Position numbers and translations under genes: made by a program. From Candidatus Iainarchaeum sp. (GTDB lineage: Archaea; Iainarchaeota; Iainarchaeia; Iainarchaeales; JAAZKV01), in contig JAAZKV010000001.1 of NCBI GenBank assembly GCA_012799645.1, positions 1 through 51,850 on the forward strand: DNA of 51,850 nt. The letters are read 5' to 3'. Below, piece by piece: positions 2,988 through 49,517 of the stretch. The notes under the pieces are model-generated. The model was not told the DNA's origin and ran no database searches. It was given only the letters and a program-made list of their open reading frames with translations. How positions within the stretch are numbered: the first letter of the stretch is position 1; each line of letters starts with the position of its first letter.

Positions 2988-3917
2988 TCAAAACTCTCTT
3001 CTAAAATTAATTCCTTTATAGTATTTAGTAACACCAACTTTTTTTCCTTCTTTTATTCTAGAAGCGGCTTTTCTATATTTGAGCACTTTGTTTTTTTTCC
3101 AAACAATCGGCATTTTGGAAACAATTCCATTTCCACCAATGCATCCCCCTTCACAAAACAAAATATCGTAAAATATTTTATCAGGGTTTGAACCAAACAA
3201 TTTTTGTAAATTTTGACACCCGTCAGAAAAAATCATTTCTTCATCTTCCAAAATGTGTTTAGTGTGAAGTGTTTCTGTTAACCCTCCACTTAAAGGATAC
3301 ACTTTTGTGTATTCATTGTAAAATGAATCAAAAATATTTGAACCCACTAATCTTGGTTTTTCTTTAGCAACAATTTGTTTTAATTCACTAAAAGTTATTA
3401 CCACATCAATAAGAGTTTTTTTGTTTTTTTCGTTAAATTGTTTTGACTCAATTTTTTTTGCAGAGCAAGGGGAAACAAAAACTATTTTGTGTTTAGGATA
3501 GTGTTTTTTCAAAACTTTTGCCATCGCAATCATTGGACTATCAAAAGGTAAAAGAAATCTAGAAAAATCAGGATACTTTGCTTTCAACAAATTAACACTT
3601 AATGGACAAACAGATGAAATGAATTTTATTTTTGTTTTCTTGTTTTCTTTAATGTATTTGTGATAATTTTTATTCACTATTTTTGCCCCAAAAGTTAATT
3701 CAGTGATAAGATCAAATCCAAGCCCTCTCATTAATGGAACAAATTTTTTAAAATCAAAATCAACTACAAAAGAAGGAGCAACCATCAAAATAACTTTACT
3801 CTCATTATACCTCAAAGAGTTTCTCAAAAGTCTTAAAGTTTTTAATTGATCTTCTGAATAAGCAAATCCGAAAAAATCAGGATAACCATAAGAATCCAAT
3901 TCAACCATTAATACCAA
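2988..3917 (-). CDS. [FeFe]-hydrogenase large-subunit C-terminal (H-cluster) domain protein, H-domain only, 309 aa
   Basis: Translation carries the three H-cluster signature regions in order: ISSVCPLS (cf. TSCCPxW), VSPCSAKKIE (cf. MPCxxKxxE), LFCEGGCIGGNG (cf. ExMxCxxGCxxGG). It also has APSFVVDF, GFDLITELTFGAKIV and PLSGGLTE blocks typical of PF02906. Start is TTG 3917 or ATG 3908. Confidence 0.8.
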   Translation of the reverse strand: MVLMVELDSYGYPDFFGFAYSEDQLKTLRLLRNSLRYNESKVILMVAPSFVVDFDFKKFVPLMRGLGFDLITELTFGAKIVNKNYHKYIKENKKTKIKFISSVCPLSVNLLKAKYPDFSRFLLPFDSPMIAMAKVLKKHYPKHKIVFVSPCSAKKIESKQFNEKNKKTLIDVVITFSELKQIVAKEKPRLVGSNIFDSFYNEYTKVYPLSGGLTETLHTKHILEDEEMIFSDGCQNLQKLFGSNPDKIFYDILFCEGGCIGGNGIVSKMPIVWKKNKVLKYRKAASRIKEGKKVGVTKYYKGINFRREF

Positions 3918-6680: not shown

Positions 6681-8144
6681 ATGGGTTGGGAATTAATAGA
6701 ATCTTATTTTAAAAACAAAAACATAGCACAAATGGAAATTGATTCTTATAATCAATTCATTAGTACAAGGTTGAACGAAATTGTTAAAGAAAATAATCTA
6801 ATTGTTCCAAAAATTGAAGAGGTAAGAATTGAGTTAAGCGATATTGAGGTTGAGAAACCAAAAATAATTGAAGCTGATGGAAGTCCAAGAGATATTTTCA
6901 CTCCAATGGAAGCACGACTTAGAAACAGAAATTACGCAGGGCCAATCTATTTAACTATGAGACTTTTTAGAAGAGATGTTGAACAGGATGCGAGAAGAAC
7001 AAATATTGGAGATATGCCTGTAATGACAAAATCAAAACTATGTTGGCTTGAAGGAAAAAACGAACAAGAACTAATTGAAATGGGAGAGGATCCAAAAGAT
7101 TTTGGAGGATACTTCATAATTAACGGAAGCGAAAAAGCACTAATGACACAAGAAGTACTATCATCCGACAGAGTACTAATTTCGGAAGGAGAAAAAGGAG
7201 TTGTTGCCGAAGTAATTTCAACAAGAGGAGCTTTCAAAGGAAGAGTAAGAGTGTTAAGAACACCAGAAGGAATGATTTACGTATCATTCCCAACCAGTCC
7301 AAAAAGATTGAGTTTGTTCGGATTGTTCAAAGCACTAGGACTTAAAACAAAAAAAGAAGTTTTTGAAGCATTCAATGATGAAAAAGAAATACAAAATGAT
7401 CTACTACTAAACTGGGAAGAATGCGATGTTAGTAATGAACAAGAAGCACTTGACAAAATCGGAAAATATGTTGCACCAGGACAAGTAATTGATTATAGAT
7501 TGAGAAGAGCAAGAGAAGTAATTGACGGATTTTTATTACCACACATTGGACAAGATGAACCAGCAAGATTAGCAAAAGCATACTACTTAGCAATGATGGC
7601 AACAAAAGCAATTGAAAGACACTACAAATTAAGAGGAAAAGATGACAAAGATAATTATGTTAACAAAAGACTTGAACTAAGTGGAAAACTAATGGAACAC
7701 TTATTCAGATACTCGTTCAAGTACTTTGTAAAAGATTTAAGATTCCAAATTGACAGAACTGTTACCAGAAGAAGAAAACTAAACATATCAACTGTTGTTA
7801 GACCTGGAGCAGTGAGTGAAAGAATCAGGTTTGCTATGAGTACAGGAAACTGGATAGGGAGAAGCACAGGAGTAGCAAAATTCATGGACAGAGTGAATTA
7901 TTTAGCACCACTAACTGATTTACGAAAAGTAAAATCACAATTAGCAAAAACAAGAGAATTGTACGAAGCTCGGGATGTTCACGGAACACACTGGGGAAGA
8001 CTTGACCCAATAGAAACACCTGATGGACCACAATGTGGATTAGTAAAAAACTTGTGTTTCATGGCAGAAGTAACAACTGATGCATCAGAAACACCAGTAG
8101 AAGAATTATTACACAAACAAGGAGTAAGATTGAAAAAATTATAA
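6681..8144 (+). CDS. rpoB2: RNA polymerase subunit B'' (N-terminal half of split Rpo2)
   Basis: Translation MGWELIESYFKNKNIAQMEIDSYNQFI...GRLDPIETPDGPQCGLVKNL is recognisably RpoB''. GGGTGA Shine-Dalgarno upstream of ATG 6681. Confidence 0.95.
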   Translation: MGWELIESYFKNKNIAQMEIDSYNQFISTRLNEIVKENNLIVPKIEEVRIELSDIEVEKPKIIEADGSPRDIFTPMEARLRNRNYAGPIYLTMRLFRRDVEQDARRTNIGDMPVMTKSKLCWLEGKNEQELIEMGEDPKDFGGYFIINGSEKALMTQEVLSSDRVLISEGEKGVVAEVISTRGAFKGRVRVLRTPEGMIYVSFPTSPKRLSLFGLFKALGLKTKKEVFEAFNDEKEIQNDLLLNWEECDVSNEQEALDKIGKYVAPGQVIDYRLRRAREVIDGFLLPHIGQDEPARLAKAYYLAMMATKAIERHYKLRGKDDKDNYVNKRLELSGKLMEHLFRYSFKYFVKDLRFQIDRTVTRRRKLNISTVVRPGAVSERIRFAMSTGNWIGRSTGVAKFMDRVNYLAPLTDLRKVKSQLAKTRELYEARDVHGTHWGRLDPIETPDGPQCGLVKNLCFMAEVTTDASETPVEELLHKQGVRLKKL

Positions 8145-8280
8145 ATCGCACTACTAAGCGAAGCGCATGTAGTGCTTCGTCTGGTCCAAGCAAAATTTTA
8201 TTTTGCGGGACCCGTAAAAGCTAAGTGCTTTTACTTGGTCATGGCGAAACAGGACAGAGTAAGATTGAAAAAATTATAAA
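8122..8280 (+). repeat. 24-nt perfect direct repeat (8122-8145 and 8257-8280, the last 24 nt of rpoB'' including its TAA) bracketing a 111-nt GC-richer three-hairpin insert
   Basis: Base-by-base comparison: GAGTAAGATTGAAAAAATTATAAA occurs twice. Hairpins at 8148-8175, 8183-8212 and 8214-8234. Confidence 0.9.
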
Positions 8281-8353
8281 AATTATGAACATCACTAAAC
8301 GAAGTTCGCAAACTTTGATTGTGGTGTCAAAACAAAAAATGGGTGAAAATGGT

Positions 8354-10168
8354 ATGGCAAAAGTAGCAAAGGTTTACATTAATGGAAGATTGATTGGGTT
8401 TCACGATGATCCAGAAAGTTTAACAAACAAAGTTGTGGAATCAAGAAGAGAAGGAAAATTACAAAAAGAAATAAACATCGCTTACCAAAAAGACACTAAC
8501 GAAGTTTACATAAACACTGATGCTGGAAGAGTACAAAGACCACTAATTGTAATAAAAAACGGAAAAAGCACTTACACTCCTGAAATCGCAAAACAAGTAA
8601 AAGAAGGAAAATTAACTTTCCAAAAATTATTAGAAATGGGAATAGTAGAGTACCTTGATGCTGAAGAAGAAGAAAACACACTAATCGCACTAAACGAAGA
8701 AGAAATAACAAAAAACCACACCCACTTAGAAATAAACGGAAGCGCAATACTCGGAGCTGTTAGTAGTTTAATCCCATACATAGAACACGATATGGCAGGA
8801 AAAGCACTACACGGAGCAAAAATGTTCAAACAAGCAATAGGGTTCGGAGCAGCGAACTACAAAATAAGACACGATACAGAAGGATACTTATTATACTACC
8901 CAGAAGTACCAATTGTTAAAACAAAAACAATGGATATGTTACAATTAGAAAAAAGACCACAATCACAAAACTTTGTAATGGCAATAATGCCATTTTACGG
9001 ATTCAACACAATGGATGCAGTAATACTAAACAAAGGAGCAATTGACAGAGGATTAGCAAGAGCGTGTTATCTTAGAAATTACGAAGCATCAGAACAAAGA
9101 TACCCAGGAGGACAAAGAGACAAATTCGAAATACCAACAGAAGAAAAAGTAGGGTTTGTAGAAGAACAACAATTCAAAAAACTAGGAGAGGACGGAATAG
9201 TTAGACTTGAAGAATACATAGAAGAAGGAGAAGCAATTATTGGAAGAACCTCACCACCAAAATTCTTTGAAGACATGACTGATTTTGGAGTGGATGAAGA
9301 AAAAAGAAGAGATAGTTCAGTAACTATTAGAAAAGGAAAACCAGGATATGTTGATACAGTAATGATGACTGAAGGAGAAGATGGAAGCAGATTAGTGAAA
9401 ATAAAAGTAAGAACAACACTAACACCAGCAGTAGGAGACAAAATCGCTTCAAAACACGGACAAAAAGGAGTAGTATCAGCAATCATTCCAGAAGAAGACA
9501 TGCCATTCACTATTGAAGGAATAAAACCTGACCTAATCCTAAACCCACACTCAATCCCATCAAGAATGACCATGGGACACTTAATGGAAATGTTCGGAGG
9601 AAAACTAGGAGCAGCAAAAGGAGAAATAATTGACGGAACCCCATTCAATAGTATGACAAGAGAAGAAATAGAAAAAGAACTAACCAAAGCAGGGTTCAGA
9701 GCGGACGGAATGGAAATATTCTACGACGGAATTACAGGAAAAAGAATAGAAGGAAGCATATTTACAGGAGTAATCGCAACACAAAAACTCTACCACGTAG
9801 TATCACACAAACTACAAGCAAGAGCAAGAGGACCAGTACAAGTACTAACAAGACAACCAACAGAAGGAAAAGAAAAAGAAGGAGGACTACGATTCGGAGA
9901 AATGGAAGGAGAAACACTAGTAGGACACGGAGCAGCAATGTTACTCCACGAAAAAATGATAGAGGACTCAGACAAAACAGTAGAACTCGTATGCGAAAAA
10001 TGCGGAGTAATCGCAGTAAATGATGAAATAAGAAGAAAAAAATACTGCCCACTATGCAAAACAGCAGCAGTGTATCCAGTAGAAATGTCATACGGATTCA
10101 AACTACTATTAGATGAATTAAAAGCGTTAGGAATAATGACAAAATTAAACCTAACAGACAAAGTATAA
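8354..10168 (+). CDS. rpoB1: RNA polymerase subunit B' (C-terminal half of split Rpo2)
   Basis: MAKVAKVYINGRLIGFHDDP...SKHGQKGVVS...GGLRFGEMEGETLVGHGAA...CEKCG...CPLC. GGTGA at 8342-8346 precedes ATG 8354. The ORF-track start at 8225 reads through an upstream insert and is rejected. Confidence 0.95.
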   Translation: MAKVAKVYINGRLIGFHDDPESLTNKVVESRREGKLQKEINIAYQKDTNEVYINTDAGRVQRPLIVIKNGKSTYTPEIAKQVKEGKLTFQKLLEMGIVEYLDAEEEENTLIALNEEEITKNHTHLEINGSAILGAVSSLIPYIEHDMAGKALHGAKMFKQAIGFGAANYKIRHDTEGYLLYYPEVPIVKTKTMDMLQLEKRPQSQNFVMAIMPFYGFNTMDAVILNKGAIDRGLARACYLRNYEASEQRYPGGQRDKFEIPTEEKVGFVEEQQFKKLGEDGIVRLEEYIEEGEAIIGRTSPPKFFEDMTDFGVDEEKRRDSSVTIRKGKPGYVDTVMMTEGEDGSRLVKIKVRTTLTPAVGDKIASKHGQKGVVSAIIPEEDMPFTIEGIKPDLILNPHSIPSRMTMGHLMEMFGGKLGAAKGEIIDGTPFNSMTREEIEKELTKAGFRADGMEIFYDGITGKRIEGSIFTGVIATQKLYHVVSHKLQARARGPVQVLTRQPTEGKEKEGGLRFGEMEGETLVGHGAAMLLHEKMIEDSDKTVELVCEKCGVIAVNDEIRRKKYCPLCKTAAVYPVEMSYGFKLLLDELKALGIMTKLNLTDKV

Positions 10169-10306: not shown

Positions 10307-12925
10307 ATGATAATGAAAAAAATTGGAAGTGTTGAGTTCAGTATTTTAGGACCTGAAATGATTAGAAAAATGAGTGCGATAGAAATCAAAACACCCGAAA
10401 CTTATGACAAAGATGGATACCCAATGGAAGGAGGGCTAATGGATGCTCACCTAGGAGTAATCAATCCAGGAATAAGATGCAAAACTTGCGGACAAGGAAT
10501 GAGAAATTGCCCAGGACACTTCGGACACATTGAACTAGAAAGACCTGTTGTTCACTCAGAGTTTGGAAGAAAACTAGAACTACTAATGAACACTACATGT
10601 AAAGATTGCGGAAACATACTATTACCAGAAGAACAAATAAAAAAATTACAAGAAGAAGCAAAAGGAAAAGTGGTTGATAAAACAAAAAAAATAATGATAA
10701 AAACAAAAACCGTAAAAAAATGCCCACACTGTTCAGCACCAGCACACAAAACAACACTTGACAAACCAACAAACTTCTTCTACAACAAAGAAAGAATTTA
10801 CCCAACACAAATAAGAGAATGGGTAGAAAAAATACCAGAAGAACACCTAAGAATACTAGGATATGACACTACAAGAATCAAACCAGAATGGTTCATAATG
10901 ACCTCACTACAAGTACCACCAATCACTATAAGACCGAGCATAACACTTGATAATGGAATAAAATCAGAAGATGATTTAACACACAAACTAGTTGATATTA
11001 TTAGAATTAATCAAAGATTAAAAGACAACATAGAAGCAGGAGCACCACAACTAATAATAGAAGATCTATGGGACCTGCTACAATACCACGTAACAACCTA
11101 CTTTGATAACAACACCGCAGGAGTGCCACCAGCAAAACACAGAAGTGGAAGACCACTAAGAACAATAATACAAAGATTGAAAGGAAAAAAAGGAAGATTC
11201 AGATACAACCTAACAGGAAAAAGAGTAAACCACGCAGCAAGAACAATAATCGTGCCAGACCCATACATTGATTTATCAGAACTAGGAATACCAGAAGAAG
11301 CAGCAAAAGAACTAACAGTACCAGAGTTCGTAACAGAATGGAATCTAGAAACAGTAAAAAAAATTGTGGAAAAAAGCGACAGACCAGTATACATTATAAG
11401 ACCAAACGGAACAAGAAGAAAAGTAACAGAAGAAAACAAAGAAGAAATCGTAAAAGAAATTGATATTGGATACAGAATAGAAAGAAACCTAAAAGACGGA
11501 GATATTGTTTTATTCAACAGACAACCATCACTACACAGAATGAGTATGATGGCACACACCGCAAGAATTATGCCAGGAAAAGTATTCAGAATGAACCCAA
11601 TAGTGTGTCCCCCATACAACGCTGACTTTGATGGAGATGAAATGAACTGCCACGTACCACAAACAGAAGAAGGAAAAGCAGAAGCAAAAAAACTAATGCT
11701 AGCAAGAGACCAAATCATATCACCAAGATTCGGAGCACCAGTAATCGCACCAAAAGAAGACGGAGTGAGCGGAGCATTCGCACTAACAATGCCACAAACA
11801 GAATTCACAAAAGAAACAGCAATGCAACTAATGTACGAAATAGGAGTAACAGAATTACCAAAACCTGACAGAGGAAAAAAATACTCAGGAAAATTAATAT
11901 TCTCACAAATACTACCAAAAGACCTAAACCTAGAATACGAATCATACACAAGCAAAATATTCAAACAAGCAGGAATGAAACCAGAAGACGGAAAAATAAT
12001 AGAACAATACATGAACAAAGTAAAAATCGTGAACGGAAACATAGAAAGCGGAGTAATTGATTCCGCATCATTAAGTGAAGGAAAAGGAGTACTAGTTGAT
12101 ACAATAGCAAGAGAATACGACAGCATAGTACTTGAACAATTCTACCACGATCTAAACAGATTAACAGGATACATTTTAACAGAAAAAGGAATGACAGCAT
12201 CACTAGCAGAATATGATGTGAGCAACAACATCGAAACACTAAAAAACAAAGTAATAAACGAAACCATGAAAAAAGCAGAAGAACTAGTAGAATCATACAA
12301 AAAAGGAACAATGGAAATCATACCAGGAAGAACAATACAAGAATCATTCGAACAATACATGATGAGAATTTCAGCAGAAGCAAAAGACAAAGTAGAAAAA
12401 GCAATAATGCAAGAAAAACTACAATACGTAACAGGAGAAGAAGCAGTGCTAAACACAATCGCCATGATACTATCAAAATCAAGAGGAAGCACTACAAACC
12501 TAATGAACATAGCAGGGTTCTGGGGACAAGCATCAGTAAGAGAAGGAAGACCAAAAAAAGGATTCAAGAAAAGACTAATCACATCAAACGAAAGAGCAGA
12601 TGAAGGACTACTAGCAGGAGGATTCATAACCAACAACTTCTTGGACGGAATGACAGCAAAACAATACTTCTACCACTCAATGGGAGGAAGACAAGGAGAA
12701 GTAGACACAGGAGTATCAACAAAAGTATCAGGATACTTATACAGAAGACTAGCAAACTCACTAAAAGACATAGTATCAGCTCCTGACGGAACAGTAAGAA
12801 CAGCATCAAACTCACTAATACAATACCAATACGGAGAAGACGGAGTGTTCCCAAAAAACACTAACAAAGGAAAAAGCGTGGATGTATTAGAAGAATACAA
12901 AAAAATGAAAGCGAAAAAAAATTAA
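10307..12925 (+). CDS. rpoA1: RNA polymerase subunit A' (Rpo1N)
   Basis: CKTCGQGMRNCPGHFGHIEL, RFNRQPSLHRMSMMAH-type block (FNRQPSLHRMSMMAHTARIM) and the catalytic NADFDGDEMN motif. GGGTGA at 10295-10300. Confidence 0.95.
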   Translation: MIMKKIGSVEFSILGPEMIRKMSAIEIKTPETYDKDGYPMEGGLMDAHLGVINPGIRCKTCGQGMRNCPGHFGHIELERPVVHSEFGRKLELLMNTTCKDCGNILLPEEQIKKLQEEAKGKVVDKTKKIMIKTKTVKKCPHCSAPAHKTTLDKPTNFFYNKERIYPTQIREWVEKIPEEHLRILGYDTTRIKPEWFIMTSLQVPPITIRPSITLDNGIKSEDDLTHKLVDIIRINQRLKDNIEAGAPQLIIEDLWDLLQYHVTTYFDNNTAGVPPAKHRSGRPLRTIIQRLKGKKGRFRYNLTGKRVNHAARTIIVPDPYIDLSELGIPEEAAKELTVPEFVTEWNLETVKKIVEKSDRPVYIIRPNGTRRKVTEENKEEIVKEIDIGYRIERNLKDGDIVLFNRQPSLHRMSMMAHTARIMPGKVFRMNPIVCPPYNADFDGDEMNCHVPQTEEGKAEAKKLMLARDQIISPRFGAPVIAPKEDGVSGAFALTMPQTEFTKETAMQLMYEIGVTELPKPDRGKKYSGKLIFSQILPKDLNLEYESYTSKIFKQAGMKPEDGKIIEQYMNKVKIVNGNIESGVIDSASLSEGKGVLVDTIAREYDSIVLEQFYHDLNRLTGYILTEKGMTASLAEYDVSNNIETLKNKVINETMKKAEELVESYKKGTMEIIPGRTIQESFEQYMMRISAEAKDKVEKAIMQEKLQYVTGEEAVLNTIAMILSKSRGSTTNLMNIAGFWGQASVREGRPKKGFKKRLITSNERADEGLLAGGFITNNFLDGMTAKQYFYHSMGGRQGEVDTGVSTKVSGYLYRRLANSLKDIVSAPDGTVRTASNSLIQYQYGEDGVFPKNTNKGKSVDVLEEYKKMKAKKN

Positions 12926-15046: not shown

Positions 15047-15442
15047 ATGAAACTCACTATGAAAGAAATATTGTTAATGAATGCATTAACTAATGTGAGC
15101 AAAGTCTCACCAAAGGATTGCATTATTGAAAACAACATAGTTACTTTCCTTGTGAACTCCAACGAAGTTGGAAAAGCAATAGGAAAAAAAGCAACAAATG
15201 TTAAAGAACTTGAAACCAAGTTAAAAAAAAGAATAGAAATAATTGGTTATTATGAAAAACCAGAAATGGTGATAGAGAAAACATTTGATGCGACAAGCAC
15301 CTCCGTGAAAGAAAAAAAAGAAAAAATAATAATCACAATGGATGGAACAAATAAAAGAAAAGTTTTAGGAAATTTTTCAAGGTTTAAGAGAGTGAAAGAA
15401 TTAATTAAAAGAAATTACGGAGTGGAAATAATTTTAGTATAA
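15047..15442 (+). CDS. nusA: archaeal NusA-like KH-domain transcription factor
   Basis: About 130 aa; KH-type block NEVGKAIGKKATNVKELE; conserved position between L30e and S12. Confidence 0.85.
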   Translation: MKLTMKEILLMNALTNVSKVSPKDCIIENNIVTFLVNSNEVGKAIGKKATNVKELETKLKKRIEIIGYYEKPEMVIEKTFDATSTSVKEKKEKIIITMDGTNKRKVLGNFSRFKRVKELIKRNYGVEIILV

Positions 15443-15624
15443 AAACACAATGAGTAATAATATGAGTGAGGATTGTGAGCAGGGATTATGTTTAGTGAGT
15501 ATGAGCAGTAATTAGGTTTAGTGAGTATATTTAGTGATTATGAGCAGGGATATGAGTAATAGTGGTTATGGGTAGTGAGTATGTTTAGTAATTTAGAAAT
15601 TTGATTTTTAGAGATGTGATTTGA
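15443..15624 (+). repeat. C-poor degenerate array of TTTAGTGAGTAT-type motifs in the nusA-rps12 spacer
   Basis: TTTAGTGAGTAT at 15491 and 15517, TTTAGTGATTAT at 15530, GGTAGTGAGTAT at 15571, TTTAGTAATTTA at 15584, interleaved with TGAGCAGGGAT/TGAGCAGTAAT. Confidence 0.8.
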
Positions 15625-16056
15625 ATGGGTTATGGAGAATTTGCAGGAAATAGTTTGATCAAAAAAAGAAAAAAAGCTAAAAAGAAAGACATTAGATATT
15701 TGAAAAAAATTAGGGCAAAAAGAGGAGAGTACAAAGATTTACTAGAAGGCGCTCCACAAGGAAGAGGAATTGTTCTAGAAAAAAGAGGAGTGGAAGCAAA
15801 ACAACCAAACTCAGGAATACGAAAATGCGTAAGAGTACAATTAATCAAAAACGGAAAAGAACTAACCGCACTAGCACCAAGAGATGGAGCAATAAAATTT
15901 ATTGATGAACACGATGAAGTAACAGTATCAGGAAGTGGAGGAGCACAAGGAGGACCATACGGAGATCTTTGGGGAGTAAAATACCAAGTAACTCACGTTA
16001 ATGGAGTAGCTCTACAAATGTTAAGAAAAGGAAAGAAAGAAAAATCTAAGAGATAA
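15625..16056 (+). CDS. rps12: 30S ribosomal protein S12 (uS12)
   Basis: [44 protein letters not shown]... is recognisably uS12. Confidence 0.95.
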
Positions 16057-16077
16057 AAAAAATAGGTGTGTGAATTG

Positions 16078-16872
16078 ATGGATAAAAAAATTGATGACAA
16101 TAAAAAAATAGAAGACAAAAAAGAAACAAAAATTGTTGCAGAAAAACCAAAAGGAGAAAAAAAAGTTTTCTCACAAAAAAAACACGAACCAAAAGAACAA
16201 GTTCCACAAGAACACAAAAGCGAAGCTAAAGAAAAACCTATTTTTGTTAAAAAGAAAAACTTGTTCCCTGAATACAAAATGTTCAACAAGTGGGACACAA
16301 GTGAAGTGGTAGTAAAAGATCTAAGTTTAGTTAGATACATTAATCTTGACACAATCATTATTCCACACACTTTTGGAAGAAAAGGACAAGGAAGATTTGC
16401 TAAAGCAAACGTAAACATTGTTGAAAGATTAATCAACAAAATAATGAGATCAGGGCAAGGAAAAAGAAAACTAAGTGGAAAATATGTTAGAGGGAGAGGA
16501 AGTTGTGGAAAAAAAATGCAAGCAATACAAATAGTAGAAAGAGCATTTGAAATTGTTGAAAAGAAAACAAAAAAGAACCCAATCCAAGTACTAGTTGATG
16601 CGGTAGAAAATGCTGCACCAAGAGAAGATATTACAAGAATCAAAAGAGGAGGAGTTGCATACTCACTCGCTGTTGATGTTTCACCAATCAAAAGACTTGA
16701 TGAAGCACTAAAAAACATTGCACTCGCAGGTTTTGGTAATTCTTTTAACAAAAAAGTAAGCGCTGAAGAAGCACTTGCGGAAGAAATAATTGCTGCTGCT
16801 GCAGGAGACATGAAGAGCTCTGCACTAAAAAGAAAAGAAGAAGTAGAAAGAGTAGCAAGGGCAAGTAGATAG
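16078..16872 (+). CDS. rps7: 30S ribosomal protein S7 (uS7) with about 65 aa of K/E-rich N-terminal extension
   Basis: NIVERLINKIMRSGQGKRKLSGK...VDAVENAAPREDITRIKRGGVAYSLAVDVSP. AGGTG Shine-Dalgarno, then ATG 16078. Confidence 0.92.
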   Translation: MDKKIDDNKKIEDKKETKIVAEKPKGEKKVFSQKKHEPKEQVPQEHKSEAKEKPIFVKKKNLFPEYKMFNKWDTSEVVVKDLSLVRYINLDTIIIPHTFGRKGQGRFAKANVNIVERLINKIMRSGQGKRKLSGKYVRGRGSCGKKMQAIQIVERAFEIVEKKTKKNPIQVLVDAVENAAPREDITRIKRGGVAYSLAVDVSPIKRLDEALKNIALAGFGNSFNKKVSAEEALAEEIIAAAAGDMKSSALKRKEEVERVARASR

Positions 16873-17017
16873 ATGCCTTAATTCTATCAAGCCAAAGGCA
16901 AAAATAGCGCACTCTAAAACAAACAAATGAAATGAGAGTGTAATAAGCCCTACCTCGCGTTAGCGAGTGTAGTGCGCGTGTGAACGGAGCAAGCCGTTCA
17001 GCAAGGGCAAGTAGATA
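16854..17017 (+). repeat. 18-nt perfect direct repeat (16854-16871 and 17000-17017, the 3' end of rps7) bracketing a 128-nt GC-richer hairpin-rich insert
   Basis: AGCAAGGGCAAGTAGATA occurs twice. The first copy is completed to stop TAG, the second to TAA. Hairpins CTCGC-GTTA-GCGAG (16954-16967) and TGAACGG-AGCAAG-CCGTTCA (16981-17000). Confidence 0.9.
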
Positions 17018-17087
17018 AATAATTTATTTGCGATTTAGTTTTCGTGCTTTTTTTTTAAAAGCACAAATTTATTTTTAAGGTGGTTAG

Positions 17088-19417: not shown

Positions 19418-20548
19418 ATGATACCGAATAATTTGAAGGATCTTGTTACTTTTGTTCCAAACAAAAATGAGTCAATACACAATTGGTTTTATTACAAAGA
19501 AGGTTATTCAAAAGAACTCATAGAGTGGCTTGTTAAAGAATACAAACTCACTGGACCAATTTATGATCCCTTTGCAGGAGTTGGAACAACTCTGCTTGTT
19601 GCAAAAAATTTGGGGATTAGTGCGATAGGAACTGATGTGAGTCCGCTAACATCATTCATTTGCAGTGTGAAAACAAGAAATTATGACACTAGTATTTTGA
19701 AAGAAGAGCTTGAAAAACTTGCTAAACTAAAACCAACAATGGTTGGAAAATATCCAAACAAAAAAATCAGAGAATTATTCAGAGCAAAAAACTTGGATGA
19801 TATATACTACTACCATCAAAAAATATTTGAAATCAAAGATGAAAAAACAAAAAACTTTTTTATGCTCGCATTAATTGACACCACTGGAAGAGTAGCGAAT
19901 GTAATCAAAACCGGTGGAAGTTTAAAAAAAATAAAAAAACACCACATGGATGTAAAAAAACTTTTATTAGGAAAAATAAAAAGAATGATACTTGATATTG
20001 AAAGAACAGAAAACAAAAAAAAACAAATCTCGCAAAATATTGGACAACCTTTGGAGTCAATTGAACCAATTATTTACAACGAAGATGCGCGAACTTTTAG
20101 ATTGGAAGAAAATTCTATTGGGTGTGTTATCACTTCCCCCCCATATTTGAATAAAATTGAGTACACTTCTGTTTACAAAATGGAGCTTGGATTATTTTTT
20201 GATGAACAAGAAACTAGACTTCGTTCTTATGTTGGAGATGTTCCTAGTGTAGAGGGTGAAGAATATGCAGGGTTACCAAATATCGCTATTGCATATTTTC
20301 AGGATATGAAAAAAGTTTTGGAAAATATTTATTTTTGTTTAAAACCAAAAGGAAAAGCTTTCATTATTGTCGCAGGAGGGTGTTTGCCTGATAGAACAGT
20401 GAATTCCGAAACAATAATTGCTGAAGATGCTAAAAAAATAGGATTCACCCTAATTGACATAATTACTGCGAGAGAAATTGCTTGCGTAACAAACCGAACC
20501 CAACACATCGGAAAAGTAAAAGAAGCGATAATCATACTAGAAAAATAA
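19418..20548 (+). CDS. SAM-dependent DNA methyltransferase (N4-C or N6-A type), orphan
   Basis: DPFAGVGTT (SAM-binding motif I) near aa 50 and VITSPPY (motif IV, (S/D/N)PPY) about 190 aa later. No adjacent endonuclease ORF. The 3' end is followed by a duplicated copy of itself (see findings). Confidence 0.65.
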   Translation: MIPNNLKDLVTFVPNKNESIHNWFYYKEGYSKELIEWLVKEYKLTGPIYDPFAGVGTTLLVAKNLGISAIGTDVSPLTSFICSVKTRNYDTSILKEELEKLAKLKPTMVGKYPNKKIRELFRAKNLDDIYYYHQKIFEIKDEKTKNFFMLALIDTTGRVANVIKTGGSLKKIKKHHMDVKKLLLGKIKRMILDIERTENKKKQISQNIGQPLESIEPIIYNEDARTFRLEENSIGCVITSPPYLNKIEYTSVYKMELGLFFDEQETRLRSYVGDVPSVEGEEYAGLPNIAIAYFQDMKKVLENIYFCLKPKGKAFIIVAGGCLPDRTVNSETIIAEDAKKIGFTLIDIITAREIACVTNRTQHIGKVKEAIIILEK

Positions 20549-20648
20549 TTGCCACTACGTGTGATTGAAAACCACACAATGAGTCATTCACGCCGGCTCT
20601 GAAGGCCGATCGAGGAGAGTAAAAGAAGCAATAATCCTACTAGAAAAA
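20515..20648 (+). repeat. 31-nt direct repeat with 2 mismatches (20515-20545 and 20618-20648, the 3' end of the methyltransferase) bracketing a 72-nt insert that begins with the stop codon in use
   Basis: AGTAAAAGAAGCGATAATCATACTAGAAAAA versus AGTAAAAGAAGCAATAATCCTACTAGAAAAA. The insert starts TAATTGCCACTACG. Confidence 0.9.
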
Positions 20649-26168: not shown

Positions 26169-27779
26169 ATGCCACAATGTAACGTTATGAAGTTAATTTA
26201 TACGAGTGTTTTTTTAGTGCTAGCATTTAGTTTGGTTAGTGCTTGTAGTGTTGATTTTAGAGACACTATTTTGGAGCTAAGAAGTGATAGTAGTGGTTAT
26301 GGAACAAACATTACTGCGGAAGATTATGATAATGTTACTATTAGATTGAAGTTTGAAATCGAAGATGTTTATGGATCAAATTGTGCCCAATACATTAAAG
26401 CAAACGCAAAAATTTATAGACAGGACGAGGATGGGTATTGGAGTGAATTCAAAACAATTAGCACAAAAAGTGAAAAATTAGAAGAAAATTACTACACTTT
26501 TACTTGGAAAGATATATTTAGAGTGGATGATAGATACACAAAGTACAGGGTTAATGCAGAGATTTTTGACAACAAAGATCAAGAATATGAAAATCTAAGA
26601 GCTTATGTGGAACTAAAAAACAACAACTCATCAAACAGTGATTATGATTACAAACCAACCACTTATTGTGAGGATCTTTCAATAATTGCAAATGATATAG
26701 AAATTAATGAAAATAGTGAACAAAACACAATTTTTTATCTAAAAAATGATTCTACAAAAAGATTTGAAATAACTGAAATAAAAATAACAAGCAACGGATT
26801 AACACTAAACAATTACTACAACGAAAAATACGCTTCTGCTAACGGAATAGCCAACATTATAGTGAAAGCAAAAGCGGATAATGTGTTCTCAAACCAAACT
26901 TACGAAAACAACATAAGCGTAAGAGGAACATTTAGTGATGGAAAAACTTGTTCATTTTCTAACATTCAAAGAAAAACATTCAATGTAAATATTAGAAACA
27001 ATGATTCTATTAGTGCAACATTCAACAACACCCCAAATTGTAATAACTTTTCTATAATCGCACAAGACTATGTGCAAATAGAGAACTTTGGAAAAATACC
27101 AATCAGCATTACAAACGGAACTAACCAAAGAGCTGATGTTTATATAGAAGGAACAATTGAAAGCACCCCTTCACTAATATCACTACCAGCAAACAGTGCA
27201 ATAACAAGAGATATTGACATAAAAACATATTTAGGAAGCGGAGAAATAACACTAAGACCAATAGTGAGTGGATGTAATTTTTCTTCAAAAACAATCAAAA
27301 TAACAAACACTGCAAGAGGAAGCATTACCCAATTAAGTATGAACACAAAATTTGAAGAAAATGAAACACAAGGAAACATAATTATCCAAGTAACAAACCC
27401 AACCACAAGAATATTCAACGGAATAGTGAAAATTAGTGCTCCGAATGGATGGAGTGCCAACACAAAAGAAGTAACAATCACTCCTGGAACAAATAATATT
27501 GTAATACCATTAACAAAAACAACTAACGCAATAAATGGGGCAGGAAAGGTTTCATTAATTGTGGAAGATGAAGAAATAAACAACGAATTTAGTGTAACAG
27601 GAGGAAACACTACAAGATCACTTGCAGGATTATTCACACTAGGAATTTTTGGAATAAACAATTTAGCCAACCTACTAATCCTAATCATAGTAGTAATACT
27701 AATAATTGGAATGATAGGAAGAATAACAAGTGATGAAAAAAACGAAAAAACACAAGCGTGGGAAGAAAAAAATAACTAA
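26169..27779 (+). CDS. secreted/surface protein: signal peptide with lipobox-like VSAC, beta-sandwich-like repeats, C-terminal TM anchor
   Basis: N-terminal hydrophobic segment LIYTSVFLVLAFSLVSAC. Internally repeated module (YCEDLSIIANDIEINEN... / PNCNNFSIIAQDYVQIEN... / GCNFSSKTIKITN...). C-terminal LANLLILIIVVILIIGMIG. Many NxS/T sequons. GGTGA Shine-Dalgarno at 26160. Confidence 0.75.
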   Translation: MPQCNVMKLIYTSVFLVLAFSLVSACSVDFRDTILELRSDSSGYGTNITAEDYDNVTIRLKFEIEDVYGSNCAQYIKANAKIYRQDEDGYWSEFKTISTKSEKLEENYYTFTWKDIFRVDDRYTKYRVNAEIFDNKDQEYENLRAYVELKNNNSSNSDYDYKPTTYCEDLSIIANDIEINENSEQNTIFYLKNDSTKRFEITEIKITSNGLTLNNYYNEKYASANGIANIIVKAKADNVFSNQTYENNISVRGTFSDGKTCSFSNIQRKTFNVNIRNNDSISATFNNTPNCNNFSIIAQDYVQIENFGKIPISITNGTNQRADVYIEGTIESTPSLISLPANSAITRDIDIKTYLGSGEITLRPIVSGCNFSSKTIKITNTARGSITQLSMNTKFEENETQGNIIIQVTNPTTRIFNGIVKISAPNGWSANTKEVTITPGTNNIVIPLTKTTNAINGAGKVSLIVEDEEINNEFSVTGGNTTRSLAGLFTLGIFGINNLANLLILIIVVILIIGMIGRITSDEKNEKTQAWEEKNN

Positions 27780-28040: not shown

Positions 28041-30422
28041 ATGGAAATTGGAAAAAAACAATTAACAATAATTGGAATAATAATAATCCTAATAATAGTT
28101 CTATTCTTGTTATTTAACAATACTCAAACAACCACTCAATCTTTTTCTTTTTCTGAGTTCAAAATGGATAAATCCATTTCTATTAACGGAGATACTCGAA
28201 TCGAAACTTACACATTTGATACACAAAACCCAATAATCGCATACTTAATAATCCCAAAAACAATCGCTGAAAATATCTCCCAACTAACAATAAACGGAGA
28301 TTACTCAACAACCATAATAGAAAGCGACCCAATACTATTACTAAAACAAAACGAATACACACCAGGAACAAAAAAACTAACAATAGAAACAAAAACAGGA
28401 AACAAAGAACACACCACCATCCTACTCCCAATAAACCTAACTGACTATGAAACATTCACCGAAGAAGAAAAACAACAACTAACAGAAACAATAAAACAAT
28501 TCAACCACATAGAAGAAAAATACTACACAACCGAAGAAGTAAAACAAATAATAGAAGAATTCGCAAAAGGAACACAAACAAACATAGAACTACAAGAAAA
28601 AAAAGAAGGGCAAATTTTTTTATCAGAAACGAGCAAACCAAAAAACAATATTATAAAATCAATAAACACCATTCTTGAAAACACTAATACTGACCCGAAC
28701 CAAAATTTTGCAAAAAAAGAAAGCATATTTGAAACACTAATGTTTATTTTGGATCAAAAAGTAAAAGAAGAACCAACAAAACTAGAAGAATTTGAAAATA
28801 AAATTCTAATTGAACTTGAACCAAAAAACAACAAATCAATCCCAAAAGAAATTAATCTATATTTATCTGAAAAAAAATTATCGGATACAATCAACATACA
28901 ATTAAATAACACCAACCAACACATAACCCCAATTATAGAAACAAGTAACGAAATTTCTAAATACATCAAAGCAAAAGTAAATAATTCAGATAAAAATGAG
29001 AAAGAACTCATTATTTCAATAGATCTGAACGAAAACACATTTAACGATTTAAATCAAATAAAATTACGCCAAATTAAATTTACTTTAAATTACCATTTTG
29101 AAAAAAAAACGGATCACAACATAAACATAATTTTTGGAAAATGTGAAGAAAACATTGGCTTAAAATTAAGAACAATCGGACAAGAAATAAACCCAGACAA
29201 AATACTTGCAAAATGTGATAATAACACATTTACAAACGATTCAAATACCCTTGATAAAAACAATTCAAAAACAAACACATTTACAAACGATTCAAATAAA
29301 CTAGATAAAAATAATTCAAAAATAAACCAAAACGATAAAAACACTCAAAAAGATTCTAATATTTTTGATGAAAAATTAATAGAAACCTTACTAGAAGAAT
29401 TTTTCCAACACAATTCAATACTAGCCAATCTACCAATTTATACAATCACCAAAGACCAAAATATTTCATTAAAAAACTGTGAAAATGGTTGTTATATTCA
29501 AACAAATTCTAATTTAATAAAAGAACTATTTGATCAAAACATCATAAAAGACAAAAACACTATAAAAATCCCATTTGACCAAATAAAAAGCATCACCATT
29601 CAACTTGTTGATTCCAACAGCGAAGAATCAGAACCAACTGATATGAATTTATTTTATCAATGCAATAGTCCTTGCACTTGGGTAGCAACAAATAGTATTG
29701 AAATTAAAAGATTTGATACAATCTCAATTGCACACATACAACAAAGCACTTTAGCAAATATAAAAATTCAAGGAGAAAATAACAAAGAATTTGTAAATAA
29801 TTTTGAATTCATTTACTACAATAGTGAAACAAATTTCCAAATACCAAATAATGATGCGATGAAATATGTTGAAGAGTTAAAAAAACAAAAAAAAATTATT
29901 TCAGTAATTCAACCTTTTGAAACAAAACAAAAAATAAAAATATTTATTCCCCAAGAACTAAAAAAAATAGAAGAAATGATGAAAACAAGAACCGCACCAT
30001 TTTTATTAAAAGATGGAACAACAAATCCGAACAAATCCGGGTGGTGTTCAGCATACGCTACTAGGTTTGCAAATAAATACTTTGGATTAAACTACAAAAA
30101 AGCAGATGCGTGGGATTTAGTAAAATTAAAGGATCACCAATTGGTTTATAGAGAAACGAAAAAAGGCGGAATAACAAAAGAACAATTTGGAACACTCGTA
30201 GAAAACGACAAAATAATTGAACCTGGAAACATAATAGGAGTTTATTATGCAGATAGCAAATATGATGAACCCGGAAGATTATACACCCATGTGATAGTAT
30301 ATTTAGGAAAAATGAATAAAGAGTACTTGTTCGCGGAAAACTTTACCGGACCAAAAATATCAAGTCTTGATGAAATTTTAAAAAGGCACACAATTATTGA
30401 TGTTATTAAACCAAAAAAGTGA
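28041..30422 (+). CDS. large N-terminally anchored surface protein with C-terminal papain-fold (NlpC/P60-, CHAP- or transglutaminase-like) Cys/His domain
   Basis: N-terminal TM LTIIGIIIILIIVLFLLF and a long N/K/T/E-rich ectodomain. The C-terminal approx. 130 aa contain GWCSAYATRF (Cys669, nt 30045-30047) and YTHVIVYLG (His750, nt 30288-30290), followed by FAENF. TATAAATA box at 28012-28019, 22 nt before the ATG (leaderless). Confidence 0.7.
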   Translation: MEIGKKQLTIIGIIIILIIVLFLLFNNTQTTTQSFSFSEFKMDKSISINGDTRIETYTFDTQNPIIAYLIIPKTIAENISQLTINGDYSTTIIESDPILLLKQNEYTPGTKKLTIETKTGNKEHTTILLPINLTDYETFTEEEKQQLTETIKQFNHIEEKYYTTEEVKQIIEEFAKGTQTNIELQEKKEGQIFLSETSKPKNNIIKSINTILENTNTDPNQNFAKKESIFETLMFILDQKVKEEPTKLEEFENKILIELEPKNNKSIPKEINLYLSEKKLSDTINIQLNNTNQHITPIIETSNEISKYIKAKVNNSDKNEKELIISIDLNENTFNDLNQIKLRQIKFTLNYHFEKKTDHNINIIFGKCEENIGLKLRTIGQEINPDKILAKCDNNTFTNDSNTLDKNNSKTNTFTNDSNKLDKNNSKINQNDKNTQKDSNIFDEKLIETLLEEFFQHNSILANLPIYTITKDQNISLKNCENGCYIQTNSNLIKELFDQNIIKDKNTIKIPFDQIKSITIQLVDSNSEESEPTDMNLFYQCNSPCTWVATNSIEIKRFDTISIAHIQQSTLANIKIQGENNKEFVNNFEFIYYNSETNFQIPNNDAMKYVEELKKQKKIISVIQPFETKQKIKIFIPQELKKIEEMMKTRTAPFLLKDGTTNPNKSGWCSAYATRFANKYFGLNYKKADAWDLVKLKDHQLVYRETKKGGITKEQFGTLVENDKIIEPGNIIGVYYADSKYDEPGRLYTHVIVYLGKMNKEYLFAENFTGPKISSLDEILKRHTIIDVIKPKK
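29224..29325 (+). repeat. 51-nt (17-aa) tandem duplication inside the large surface-protein gene
   Basis: The first 24 nt of each unit, ACACATTTACAAACGATTCAAATA (29224 and 29275), are identical. Peptide units TFTNDSNTLDKNNSKTN / TFTNDSNKLDKNNSKIN. Confidence 0.85.
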
Positions 30423-49352: not shown

Positions 49353-49517
49353 GCAGGGGTTCCCGAGCGGTCAAAGGGGCAGGACTTAAGATGTCAAACA
49401 AAAGGCAAAAAAGCTCTATCAAAGCCAAAAGCAAGATAGTGTGCACTTGTCCAAAGGGAAAAACAGATGTGATCCTGTGGCTTAGTGCCTTCGACGGTTC
49501 AAATCCGTCCCCCTGCA
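49353..49517 (+). tRNA. tRNA-Leu(UAA), class II (long variable arm), interrupted by an 81-nt intron at the 37/38 position
   Basis: Hand fold. Acceptor GCAGGGG/CCCCTGC. D arm CCC..GGG with loop GAGCGGTCAAA. Anticodon stem CAGGA (49380-84)/TCCTG (49473-77), loop CTTAAG+A. Variable arm TGGCTTAGTGCCTTC. T arm GACGG-TTCAAAT-CCGTC. Discriminator A; no encoded CCA. Confidence 0.9.
49391..49471 (+). other. tRNA-Leu intron (81 nt; boundary could shift by 1 nt because A flanks both junctions)
   Basis: This is the sequence between anticodon-loop G37 (49390) and A38/TCCTG. It is A-rich and does not fit any tRNA arm. I could not confirm a bulge-helix-bulge by eye. Confidence 0.75.

Follow-up and report, generated by a model that had tools for sequence, protein, structure and literature searches.

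The genes for subunits B'' and B' of RNA polymerase stand one after the other in a stretch of 51,850 nucleotides (nt) from Candidatus Iainarchaeum sp. (GCA_012799645.1, JAAZKV010000001.1, positions 1 to 51,850, forward strand), here called the window, and the junction between rpoB'' and rpoB' raises a simple question: how did the end of rpoB'', stop codon included, come to be present twice, in perfect copies of 24 nt that enclose 111 nt of hairpin-rich DNA? The host belongs to the Iainarchaeota, formerly Diapherotrites, a group of DPANN archaea. The enclosed sequence is a member of a structured family that occupies many sites, in most cases between two copies of the local sequence, and its site at rpoB'' is empty in close relatives. 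We consider it probable that a family of mobile elements, non-coding and structured, resides in Iainarchaeota genomes and that the insert is one of its copies, and equally probable that this tiny element produced the 24-nt repeat as a long target-site duplication.

The repeated 24-mer, GAGTAAGATTGAAAAAATTATAAA, spans the last rpoB'' codons and the TAA stop. It was found exactly at the two positions listed in Table 1 and at no third site in the window even when three mismatches were allowed, and no such repeat is expected in shuffled sequences. The GC (guanine plus cytosine) content of the insert is 46%, compared to 31% for the window, and its predicted folding is markedly more stable than that of shuffled sequences (z of -4.2 on the plus strand and -4.9 on the minus strand). 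The initial annotation had described a perfect repeat around a GC-richer insert with three back-to-back hairpins, all of which were recovered where it had placed them, and its view of a foreign structured insert with the repeat as the signature of insertion has also stood. Its more specific proposals, namely an att-site remnant, a foreign allele, a second rpoB''/rpoB' junction and an assembly artefact, did not survive the comparisons described below. The artefact can practically be dismissed, as the junction is identical, base for base as far as the contigs extend, in six independently assembled public contigs encoding the same RpoB'' (three JGI metagenomes, one NCBI assembly and two Logan runs, which differ in sample and assembler), and homologous inserts are present in other species.

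The reading frames on both sides of the insert were also assessed. Pfam RNA_pol_Rpb2_1/2/3 are recorded for a protein identical to the RpoB'' of the window. The spacing of the two repeat copies, 135 nt, keeps the frame, and no stop codon follows the TAA within the insert. Read-through or recoding of the rpoB'' stop was nevertheless rejected, since 11% of shuffled inserts were equally stop-free and relatives have their homologous inserts at a spacing of 83 nt; the in-frame, stop-free state is probably due to chance. Public gene calls start RpoB' at a GTG at 8225, within the element, giving a protein of 647 amino acids. According to the relatives, translation starts at the ATG at 8354 (MAKVAKV...), and the database entries thus carry 43 spurious residues at the N terminus.

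The initial annotation had further read the ends of the insert as diverged copies of the native junction. The likeness of GGTCATGGCGAAAC to the rpoB' start has a background frequency of 0.0006 per 30-nt window, but the comparison was chosen post hoc, and GGTCATGGCGAAAC turned out to be the invariant 3' module of the family, present at many unrelated loci, which removes the ground for a second junction-like module. The likeness of a segment of the native spacer to the first hairpin (p of approximately 0.005 against shuffles and 0.015 against the genomic background) is only suggestive; the segment may be a relic of an older copy (Table 1).

The same spacer was compared in relatives by a scan with RpoB'', limited to one genome per species, which gave 58 orthologous loci, nearly all of them labelled Candidatus Iainarchaeum, Forterrea or 'archaeon' metagenome-assembled genomes, with B''-to-B' spacers of 8 to 280 nt. 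Homologous inserts were found at the same site in L007 (RpoB'' 97% identical to that of the window) and L022 (82%), each in the form of a 55-nt short element, CGCACUACUAAGCGAAGCGCACGUAGUGCUUCGUCUGGUCAUGGCGAAACAGGAC and a variant of it, flanked by perfect repeats of 28-30 nt (AAGG...TAAAT). In the window, L007 and L022, both repeat copies correspond to each genome's own rpoB'' tail, and these tails differ among the genomes; compared to the form in L007 and L022, the right copy in the window is 2 nt short at its start. The window element consists of the 55-nt core and a further 54 nt, making up two hairpins, between CUUCGUC and UGGUCAUGG. The cores of the window and L007 are identical at all but one of 55 positions, while the third codon positions of the hosts differ by approximately 24%. 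The site is empty in L059, which with 89% nucleotide identity (third codon positions approximately 75% identical) equals L007 in closeness to the window, and it is likewise empty in L021, L027 and L024, the nearest relatives of L022. When only spacers of at least 35 nt were counted, a significant second copy of the genome's own rpoB'' tail was present in 5 of 35 relatives, with different sequences between the copies (Table 1).

Taken by itself, the rpoB'' site could also have a different history, in which a single old insertion took place and the tail copies were kept identical by gene conversion, or the whole tail-element-tail cassette was spread between lineages by homologous recombination in the conserved genes on either side; the perfect repeat of the window would then not need to mean a recent insertion. 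The duplication boundaries (AAGG...TAAAT) are identical in the three rpoB'' copies, and the 28-nt duplicated segment of L022 shows one difference from the window group and four to five from its own nearest relatives, although this recombination signal comes from very few positions and is weak evidence. Homologous recombination has been documented in this lineage, in a related Diapherotrite (PMC5905446). On the other hand, the empty sites in L059, L021, L027 and L024 would require repeated precise losses, and one old insertion accounts for one site and not for a dozen others with their own duplications. We therefore regard it as a somewhat doubtful account of the rpoB'' site, and one that is compatible with the mobile element rather than a replacement for it; the data suggest that recombination-mediated transfer or conversion also contributes at this site.

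Some of the other relatives showed features of their own at this junction. In L019, the rpoB'' tail stands in tandem, the first copy ending in TGA and the second in TAA, which may be the footprint of a lost insert. The RpoB'' frame of L054 (2989-5979) encodes 996 amino acids instead of the usual 487 and is approximately 1.5 kb longer, as expected of a large in-frame insertion, possibly an intein, and the displaced rpoB'' stop of L046 resembles a large in-frame insertion as well. L054 also has an intergenic repeat family of its own (TTGCCAACAGGCAAATCCAACC...), present at 2358-2448 and, as two tandem units, in the B''/B' spacer. The B''/B' spacers of L025, L010 and L052 are 229-280 nt long and, judged from the DNA only, contain apparent small hydrophobic open reading frames (ORFs) and no hairpin element.

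The element is built from a 5' hairpin, P1, followed by a 25-nt 3' module, UCGUC-UGGUCAU-GGCGA-AACAGGAC. The short form measures approximately 55 nt, and the 111-nt long form of the window results from two extra hairpins in the loop of the module. P1 comprises 7-9 base pairs, the sequence of which varies among copies while the pairing is kept: across 12 copies all seven outer pairs were changed on both sides and 96% of the cells were paired, with shuffled and slid controls far below. The alignment used was register-anchored, with loops set to GAAA and stems picked from individual folds, and favours structure; folding of each copy separately, which is independent of the alignment, gave a mean z of -3.5 for the P1 regions. 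In minimum-free-energy predictions, the 3' module folds as UCGUC[UGGUCAU]GGCGA followed by the 8-nt tail AACAGGAC. The sequence of this helix, P2, is invariant in the sample and consequently without covariation support. An alternative helix, P3 (GUC(C)UG/CAGGAC), would pair the terminal CAGGAC with an upstream GUCCUG and is perfect in the long form of L022, and the models would allow either P2 or P3 as the closing helix. Hairpins 2 and 3 both keep their pairing by compensatory changes between the window and L022:1399-1512. The plus (sense) strand appears to be the folded one, as the other strand would have C.A mismatches in place of the G.U pairs of P1 and P2. Rfam 15 gave no match on the element, either in the window (at E <= 10 and at the gathering threshold) or in six copy-bearing loci (at E <= 5). 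When compared by eye with consensus sequences, none of the hammerhead, twister, hepatitis delta virus-like, kink-turn (K-turn) or C/D box motifs fitted.

Table 1. Features of the window around the rpoB''/rpoB' junction, related inserts, and copies of the element at other loci
Feature	Position	Strand	Remarks
rpoB'' (RNA polymerase subunit B'', 487 amino acids)	6681-8144	+	from the ORF list; stop TAA 8142-8144; unharmed by the insertion
Left copy of target duplication	8122-8145	+	genuine rpoB'' 3' end plus 1 nt
Inserted element, long form, 111 nt	8146-8256	+	between the two 24-nt copies
P1 hairpin	8148-8175	+	outer stem GCACUAC/GUAGUGC; apical part UAA-GCG-AAG-CGC-AU
P2 5' strand, UUCGUC	8176-8181	+	pairs with 8243-8248 (GGCGAA) in minimum-free-energy folds
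54-nt expansion in P2 loop	8182-8235	+	bounded by TGGTC duplication; not in the short forms of L007 and L022
Hairpin 2	8183-8212	+	within the 54-nt expansion
Hairpin 3	8214-8234	+	within the 54-nt expansion
3' module TGGTCATGGCGAAACAGGAC	8236-8255	+	P2 loop, P2 3' strand (8243-8248) and tail; sharp 3' end
Right copy of target duplication	8257-8280	+	non-coding pseudo-tail of rpoB''
Possible relic of older copy in native spacer	8293-8310	+	ACTAAACGAAGTTCGCA versus ACTAAGCGAAGCGCA of P1; uncertain
rpoB'	8354-10168	+	true start ATG 8354; GGTGA upstream at 8342-8346
Second insert of the same design	16854-17018	+	19-nt duplication AGCAAGGGCAAGTAGATAG/A flanks 127-nt multi-hairpin insert 16873-16999
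Third insert	20515-20648	+	31-nt duplication (2 mismatches) flanks 72-nt insert 20546-20617
tRNA-Leu(UAA) intron, 81 nt	49391-49471	+	gene 49353-49517; P1-like hairpin of type B, homologous to the family together with the sequence adjoining it
Between rpoB'' tail copies, window, L007, L022			the element
Between rpoB'' tail copies, L054			a different repeat element
Between rpoB'' tail copies, L019	4440-4495		only about 4 nt (GCAA); the position is that of the tandem tails in L019
Copy L069			after rpoA'; same contig as rpoB'' copy L086
Copies L067, L110, L112			RNase P RNA genes of three different species, at the 3' end
Copy L065			abuts 3' end of tRNA-Leu gene
Copy L085			between Bud32-like kinase gene and uS15
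Copy L089			between eL14 and uS13
Copy L097			upstream of thrS
Copy L074			upstream of uS3
Copy L071			at stop of membrane-protein gene
Copies L092, L100			no assigned gene context

The 20-mer TGGTCATGGCGAAACAGGAC, common to the versions in the window, L007 and L022, was used as the query in a scan of metagenomes. The scan returned approximately 14 low-GC copies at different loci, all with an identical TGGTCATGGCGAAACAGGAC (Table 1; gene names at protein-coding sites were read from translations, without family search), and it also matched unrelated coding sequence in gut-metagenome contigs of approximately 60% GC. The hosts have diverged considerably, with the uS3 protein of L074 being 64% identical to that of the window. 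At 10 of 11 sites the element lies in sense to the upstream gene (p = 0.006), while the L065 copy is antisense to all its neighbours. The L065 copy matches the window base for base from 8184 to 8255, expansion included. Two Logan contigs of the window population, L005 and L006, both end at the position corresponding to 8213, 30 nt into this common segment. A k=31 assembly graph would branch there if a second copy were identical from 8184 onward, which is indirect evidence for at least two copies of the element in the populations behind these contigs. No diverged copies of the module within six substitutions were found in the 754 kb searched; one variant with an indel, L022:1399-1512, was found through its duplication. 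Beside a cluster of hairpin elements in L092, a 306-amino-acid ORF (746-1666) has LAGLIDADG-like motifs by eye, and no rRNA or intron context was detected for it.

Across the family and the related inserts, 15 duplications were measured, which ranged from 16 to 52 nt (median 26), contained 0-4 mismatches and differed in sequence from site to site. Most copies are flanked by a duplication of local sequence that starts 0 nt after the terminal ...AGGAC, and the 3' boundary is constant to the base while the 5' boundary varies by 0-19 nt. The initial annotation had considered 24 nt to be far beyond the target-site duplications of transposases; within this series the repeat behaves as a long target-site duplication of variable length. 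At tight junctions the upstream stop and the downstream start both fall within the duplication, as in L089 and L022:1381-1530 (rpoH/rpoB''), and consequently both genes are intact. In 446 kb of low-GC DNA, a blind search for inserts that are GC-richer, fold significantly and lie between close direct repeats of 15 nt or more gave 10 hits, compared to none in two shuffled controls. Some targets have received more than one insertion: the RNase P tail is present three times in L067, with one insert, accompanied by a 21-nt duplication, just before the oligo-T terminator and a 5'-truncated module-1 element that then inserted inside the first insert with a 52-nt duplication, and L100 has three target copies around two different inserts. 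Elsewhere in L067 (11323-11400), a 38-nt hairpin insert is enclosed by a 20-nt duplication that takes in the 3' end of a tRNA gene with an intron, located on the minus strand at 11384-11523.

Integrative elements and free-standing homing genes can duplicate the 3' ends of genes, and the ends of tRNA and RNase P RNA genes are among the sites occupied here. The attL/attR-like remnant of a larger decayed element suggested in the initial annotation, or a homing event that brought in a foreign rpoB'' tail, is nevertheless very improbable. Both repeats are the host's own sequence in three diverged lineages, the insert is a conserved 55-nt unit, no integrase or endonuclease gene lies nearby, and a dozen unrelated loci with their own local duplications would, on this account, call for dozens of different 'att' sequences.

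The duplications as such would be accounted for by a DNA transposon that is non-autonomous and depends in trans on a transposase with widely staggered cuts, as in IS1634 and IS1549. The duplications of IS1549 and IS1634, made by a mechanism that is not known, extend from 8 to 514 bp (PMC2266710), a range that includes the 16-52 nt observed, and conventional transposons are active in the related Diapherotrite Ca. Forterrea (PMC5905446). The structure of the inserts fits this poorly. None of 15 inserts has terminal inverted repeats, the first 20 nt matching the reverse complement of the last 20 nt no better than expected from shuffles, and no transposase gene lies beside any copy. One copy, L067a, lacks P1 at its 5' end and still has a clean 52-nt duplication. 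In L069, the copy at the rpoA' site, which shares its contig with an rpoB'' copy, has 11 nt of the rpoB'' tail (AAATTATAAAT) directly on its 5' side, as if transduced with it; this site has no duplication and has lost its native spacer. Only the 3' end of the element is sharp and conserved. The combination of duplications, absence of inverted repeats, a sharp 3' and a ragged 5' end, and the L067a and L069 copies argues against a two-ended, cut-and-paste transposase, and we consider a transposon of this kind unlikely.

A possible explanation for the same combination, which we advance tentatively and hold at somewhat less than even, is a retroposition-like copying anchored at the 3' end of the element. 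Most simply, a read-through transcript ending in ...AGGAC would be copied into a staggered break, similarly to the target-primed reverse transcription of short interspersed nuclear elements (SINEs). The copied template may include upstream flank, whether it was a read-through transcript or the genomic copy itself. The duplication of the target belongs to the probable reading as a mobile element: insertion duplicates a stretch of the target and leaves the element between two copies of local sequence. At the rpoB''/rpoB' site, the last 24-28 nt of rpoB'' are duplicated, with the left copy preserving the gene and its stop and the right copy remaining as a harmless pseudo-tail, and rpoB' retains its spacer, ribosome-binding site and start. 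Insertions into tightly packed gene junctions probably survive by virtue of the long duplication. Spread among related lineages at the same conserved site may involve homologous recombination in addition. That the elements are the first target-primed, SINE-like retroposons in Archaea, inserted preferentially behind highly transcribed genes, is a more speculative proposal that we put forward with considerable reserve. In a related scenario, the elements would derive from bulge-helix-bulge introns as mobile forms able to settle in tRNA introns too.

Several observations weigh against a mobile element that inserts in this manner. No reverse transcriptase, transposase, integrase or Cas1 gene was found in the flanks of 14 copies or among the window ORFs scanned; the genes flanking the copies read as housekeeping genes, and a partial Pfam scan of the window showed no mobilising enzyme. 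No viral or plasmid partner was found either, three scans of viral contigs giving nothing or chance hits in coding sequence. To our knowledge, no target-primed retroposon system is known in archaea. L065, L069, L074 and L092 have no clear duplication. No convincing target motif was found at the edges of the reconstructed empty sites, where only a weak A|A excess was seen by eye, and microhomology between the element tail and the sequence upstream of the duplication was not significant, although AAACA occurs at this place in both RNase P and rpoB''. The shared boundaries at rpoB'' fit one ancestral event with gene conversion or recombination-mediated transfer as well as they fit repeated insertion. 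The invariance of the module is in part a matter of ascertainment, the query having been an exact 20-mer, and the sample is small and drawn from metagenomic contigs. Finally, the elements may act as RNA in cis, an explanation that is taken up below. A guide-RNA-like mechanism was not indicated, as neither matches nor complementarity between the element and its target duplication exceeded shuffles.

Related inserts were found at two further places in the window. The 127-nt insert at 16873-16999 forms four hairpins and ends in GAACGG-AGCAAG-CCGUUC directly at the right copy of its duplication, which includes the stop of the ORF at 16066-16872; downstream, a 730-amino-acid ORF begins at 17088, a putative elongation factor EF-2 judging from position and length. 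The insert at 20546-20617 has a type-C 5' part (GCCACUAC, a hairpin and AAUGAGUCA) joined to a different 3' module (CACGCCGGCUCUGAAGGCCGAUCGAGGAG) that is common to L067. Both inserts contain 5' submotifs of the rpoB'' family (GCCACUAC, hairpin and AAUGAGUCA; UAUC-GAGCC..GCGAA-GAUA) with other 3' modules, and the 3' module CACGCCGGCUCUGARGG..CGAG recurs in L067; the elements are mosaics of shared 5' parts on different 3' modules. The first bases of the insert at 20546, TAA, now end a methylase-like ORF (19418-20548), the frame of which stays open past the right repeat (up to ..EKGGLEVENKAWKVQGQKHAIKRG and a stop). The insertion has probably truncated this ORF, or else removal or bypass of the insert takes place in the RNA. 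In the tRNA-Leu(UAA) gene, the intron aligns locally with family members at z of 3.7-5.6. Neither ARAGORN nor the Rfam gathering pass detected this gene, which was found only at the E-value threshold (38 bits).

These inserts bear on whether the elements are functional RNA modules, serving 3'-end or intercistronic stability or processing, or removed in the manner of an intron together with one repeat, and spread by selection. The structure is strongly conserved with compensatory changes, 10 of 11 sites are in sense, the sites follow highly expressed genes and stable RNAs, a related hairpin lies in the tRNA-Leu intron, and an RtcB ligase is encoded in the window. Moreover, the ORF interrupted at 20546 continues after the right repeat, and the two differences between its repeats are synonymous or conservative. 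Against such a function, the element matches no Rfam family, it is missing from most orthologous junctions, including those of very close relatives, the L065 copy is antisense to all its neighbours, removal at rpoB'' would leave the protein unchanged, and direct repeats alone cannot form a bulge-helix-bulge splice motif. Selection for an RNA function is an improbable explanation of the spread of the elements. The excisable or spliced RNA suggested in the initial annotation received no direct support and stays conceivable.

Other features of the window were recorded in passing. A degenerate array of 13-26-nt repeats (AGTGAGTATG / TTTAGTGATTATGAGCAGGGAT) occupies 15471-15593, between the ORFs at 15047-15442 and 15625-16056. 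A 309-amino-acid ORF on the minus strand (2988-3917) carries an [FeFe]-hydrogenase large-subunit C-terminal domain. The ORFs at 26169-27779 (536 amino acids) and 28041-30422 (793 amino acids) have no Pfam match, and the latter holds a 51-nt tandem repeat at 29223-29324.

DPANN genomes are small and compact and are thought to carry few mobile elements. A 55-nt class that colonises the junctions of essential operons (RNA polymerase B''/B', H/B'' and A'/A'', RNase P RNA, tRNAs and ribosomal proteins) by duplicating gene ends would represent a new solution for survival in such genomes. The hallmarks observed, namely long variable duplications, a sharp structured 3' end with a ragged 5' end, flank transduction and sense bias, are those of eukaryotic retroposition. 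If retroposition in archaea were confirmed, it would be categorically new for prokaryotes and would imply an unrecognised reverse transcriptase or nuclease activity in DPANN archaea, and an RNA-mediated mechanism would bear on the origin of retrotransposition without long terminal repeats (non-LTR). On the practical side, the elements mislead gene callers, as with the public RpoB' that is 43 residues too long, break short-read assemblies at predictable points, and offer insertion-polymorphism markers for strain tracking in uncultivated archaea. The module sequence was found in no paper of the literature searched, and searches on mobile elements of DPANN archaea or Iainarchaeota and on long duplications led only to conventional transposons and to IS1634/IS1549; the family is apparently undescribed.

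Among the known systems compared, the pattern of the element comes closest to the SINE-type retroposition of eukaryotes. IS1634 and IS1549, which are IS4-related DDE elements, resemble it in their long, variable target duplications of 8-514 bp (PMC2266710), yet they are 1.5-2 kb long with a transposase and inverted repeats, whereas the element has neither and tolerates 5' truncation. With no inverted repeats, no adjacent transposase and only the duplication in common, it was not assigned to the IS1634 type or its derivatives. Miniature inverted-repeat transposable elements, or MITEs, of bacteria and archaea are similarly tiny, non-autonomous, structured, multi-copy and intergenic, but carry terminal inverted repeats and duplicate a short target of a length fixed for each family; the 15 inserts have no such repeats and their duplications vary from 16 to 52 nt, and a MITE was rejected. 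The palindrome-associated transposable elements (PATEs) and repetitive extragenic palindromes (REPs) derived from IS200/IS605, as well as the rolling-circle IS91 and Helitrons, share recognition by hairpins in place of inverted repeats, and one sharp end with a subterminal hairpin and another that can vary. IS200/IS605 and rolling-circle elements make no target duplication and insert beside a fixed motif of 4-5 nt. Duplications are the rule for the element and no conserved motif was found at the edges of the empty sites, and both types were discarded.

The GC clusters and the 'byp' elements of yeast mitochondria and the Rickettsia palindromic elements are likewise GC-richer hairpin mini-inserts that spread in AT-rich, compact genomes. 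They are tolerated in or next to essential genes and have no long target duplications. Byps are bypassed by ribosomes within coding sequence, whereas in the element the duplication itself preserves the gene ends. The archaeal bulge-helix-bulge introns, including mobile tRNA introns, are connected to the family by the hairpin in the tRNA-Leu intron and by a host that encodes RtcB, but most copies of the element are intergenic, where splicing is unnecessary, and these introns make no long duplications. Att sites of the tRNA-type integration systems were rejected, as the repeats are local host sequence, differ by site and enclose only 55-127 nt. Off-target integration of spacers by Cas1-Cas2 of CRISPR (clustered regularly interspaced short palindromic repeats) systems was rejected as well, the insert being a structured 55-111-nt family member present at many sites and not a random, unique sequence of about 30-40 nt within a duplication of repeat length.

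The SINEs and other LINE-dependent retroposons of eukaryotes differ from the element in host, and the element, at 55-111 nt, has no A-rich or microsatellite tail, no evident internal promoter, so that its expression would be by read-through, and no partner reverse transcriptase or endonuclease in the flanks of the 14 copies or among the window ORFs scanned. In several other traits the two are alike. Both are short and non-coding, without terminal inverted repeats, and both have variable target duplications in the same size range. The 3' end is sharp, conserved and structured in both, while the 5' end is ragged or truncated, and both show transduced flanks, mosaic 5' parts on a common 3' module and occasional insertions free of duplication. 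The element thus combines duplications of variable length and empty sites in relatives with a constant 3' end, a variable 5' end and transduced flank, as SINEs do.

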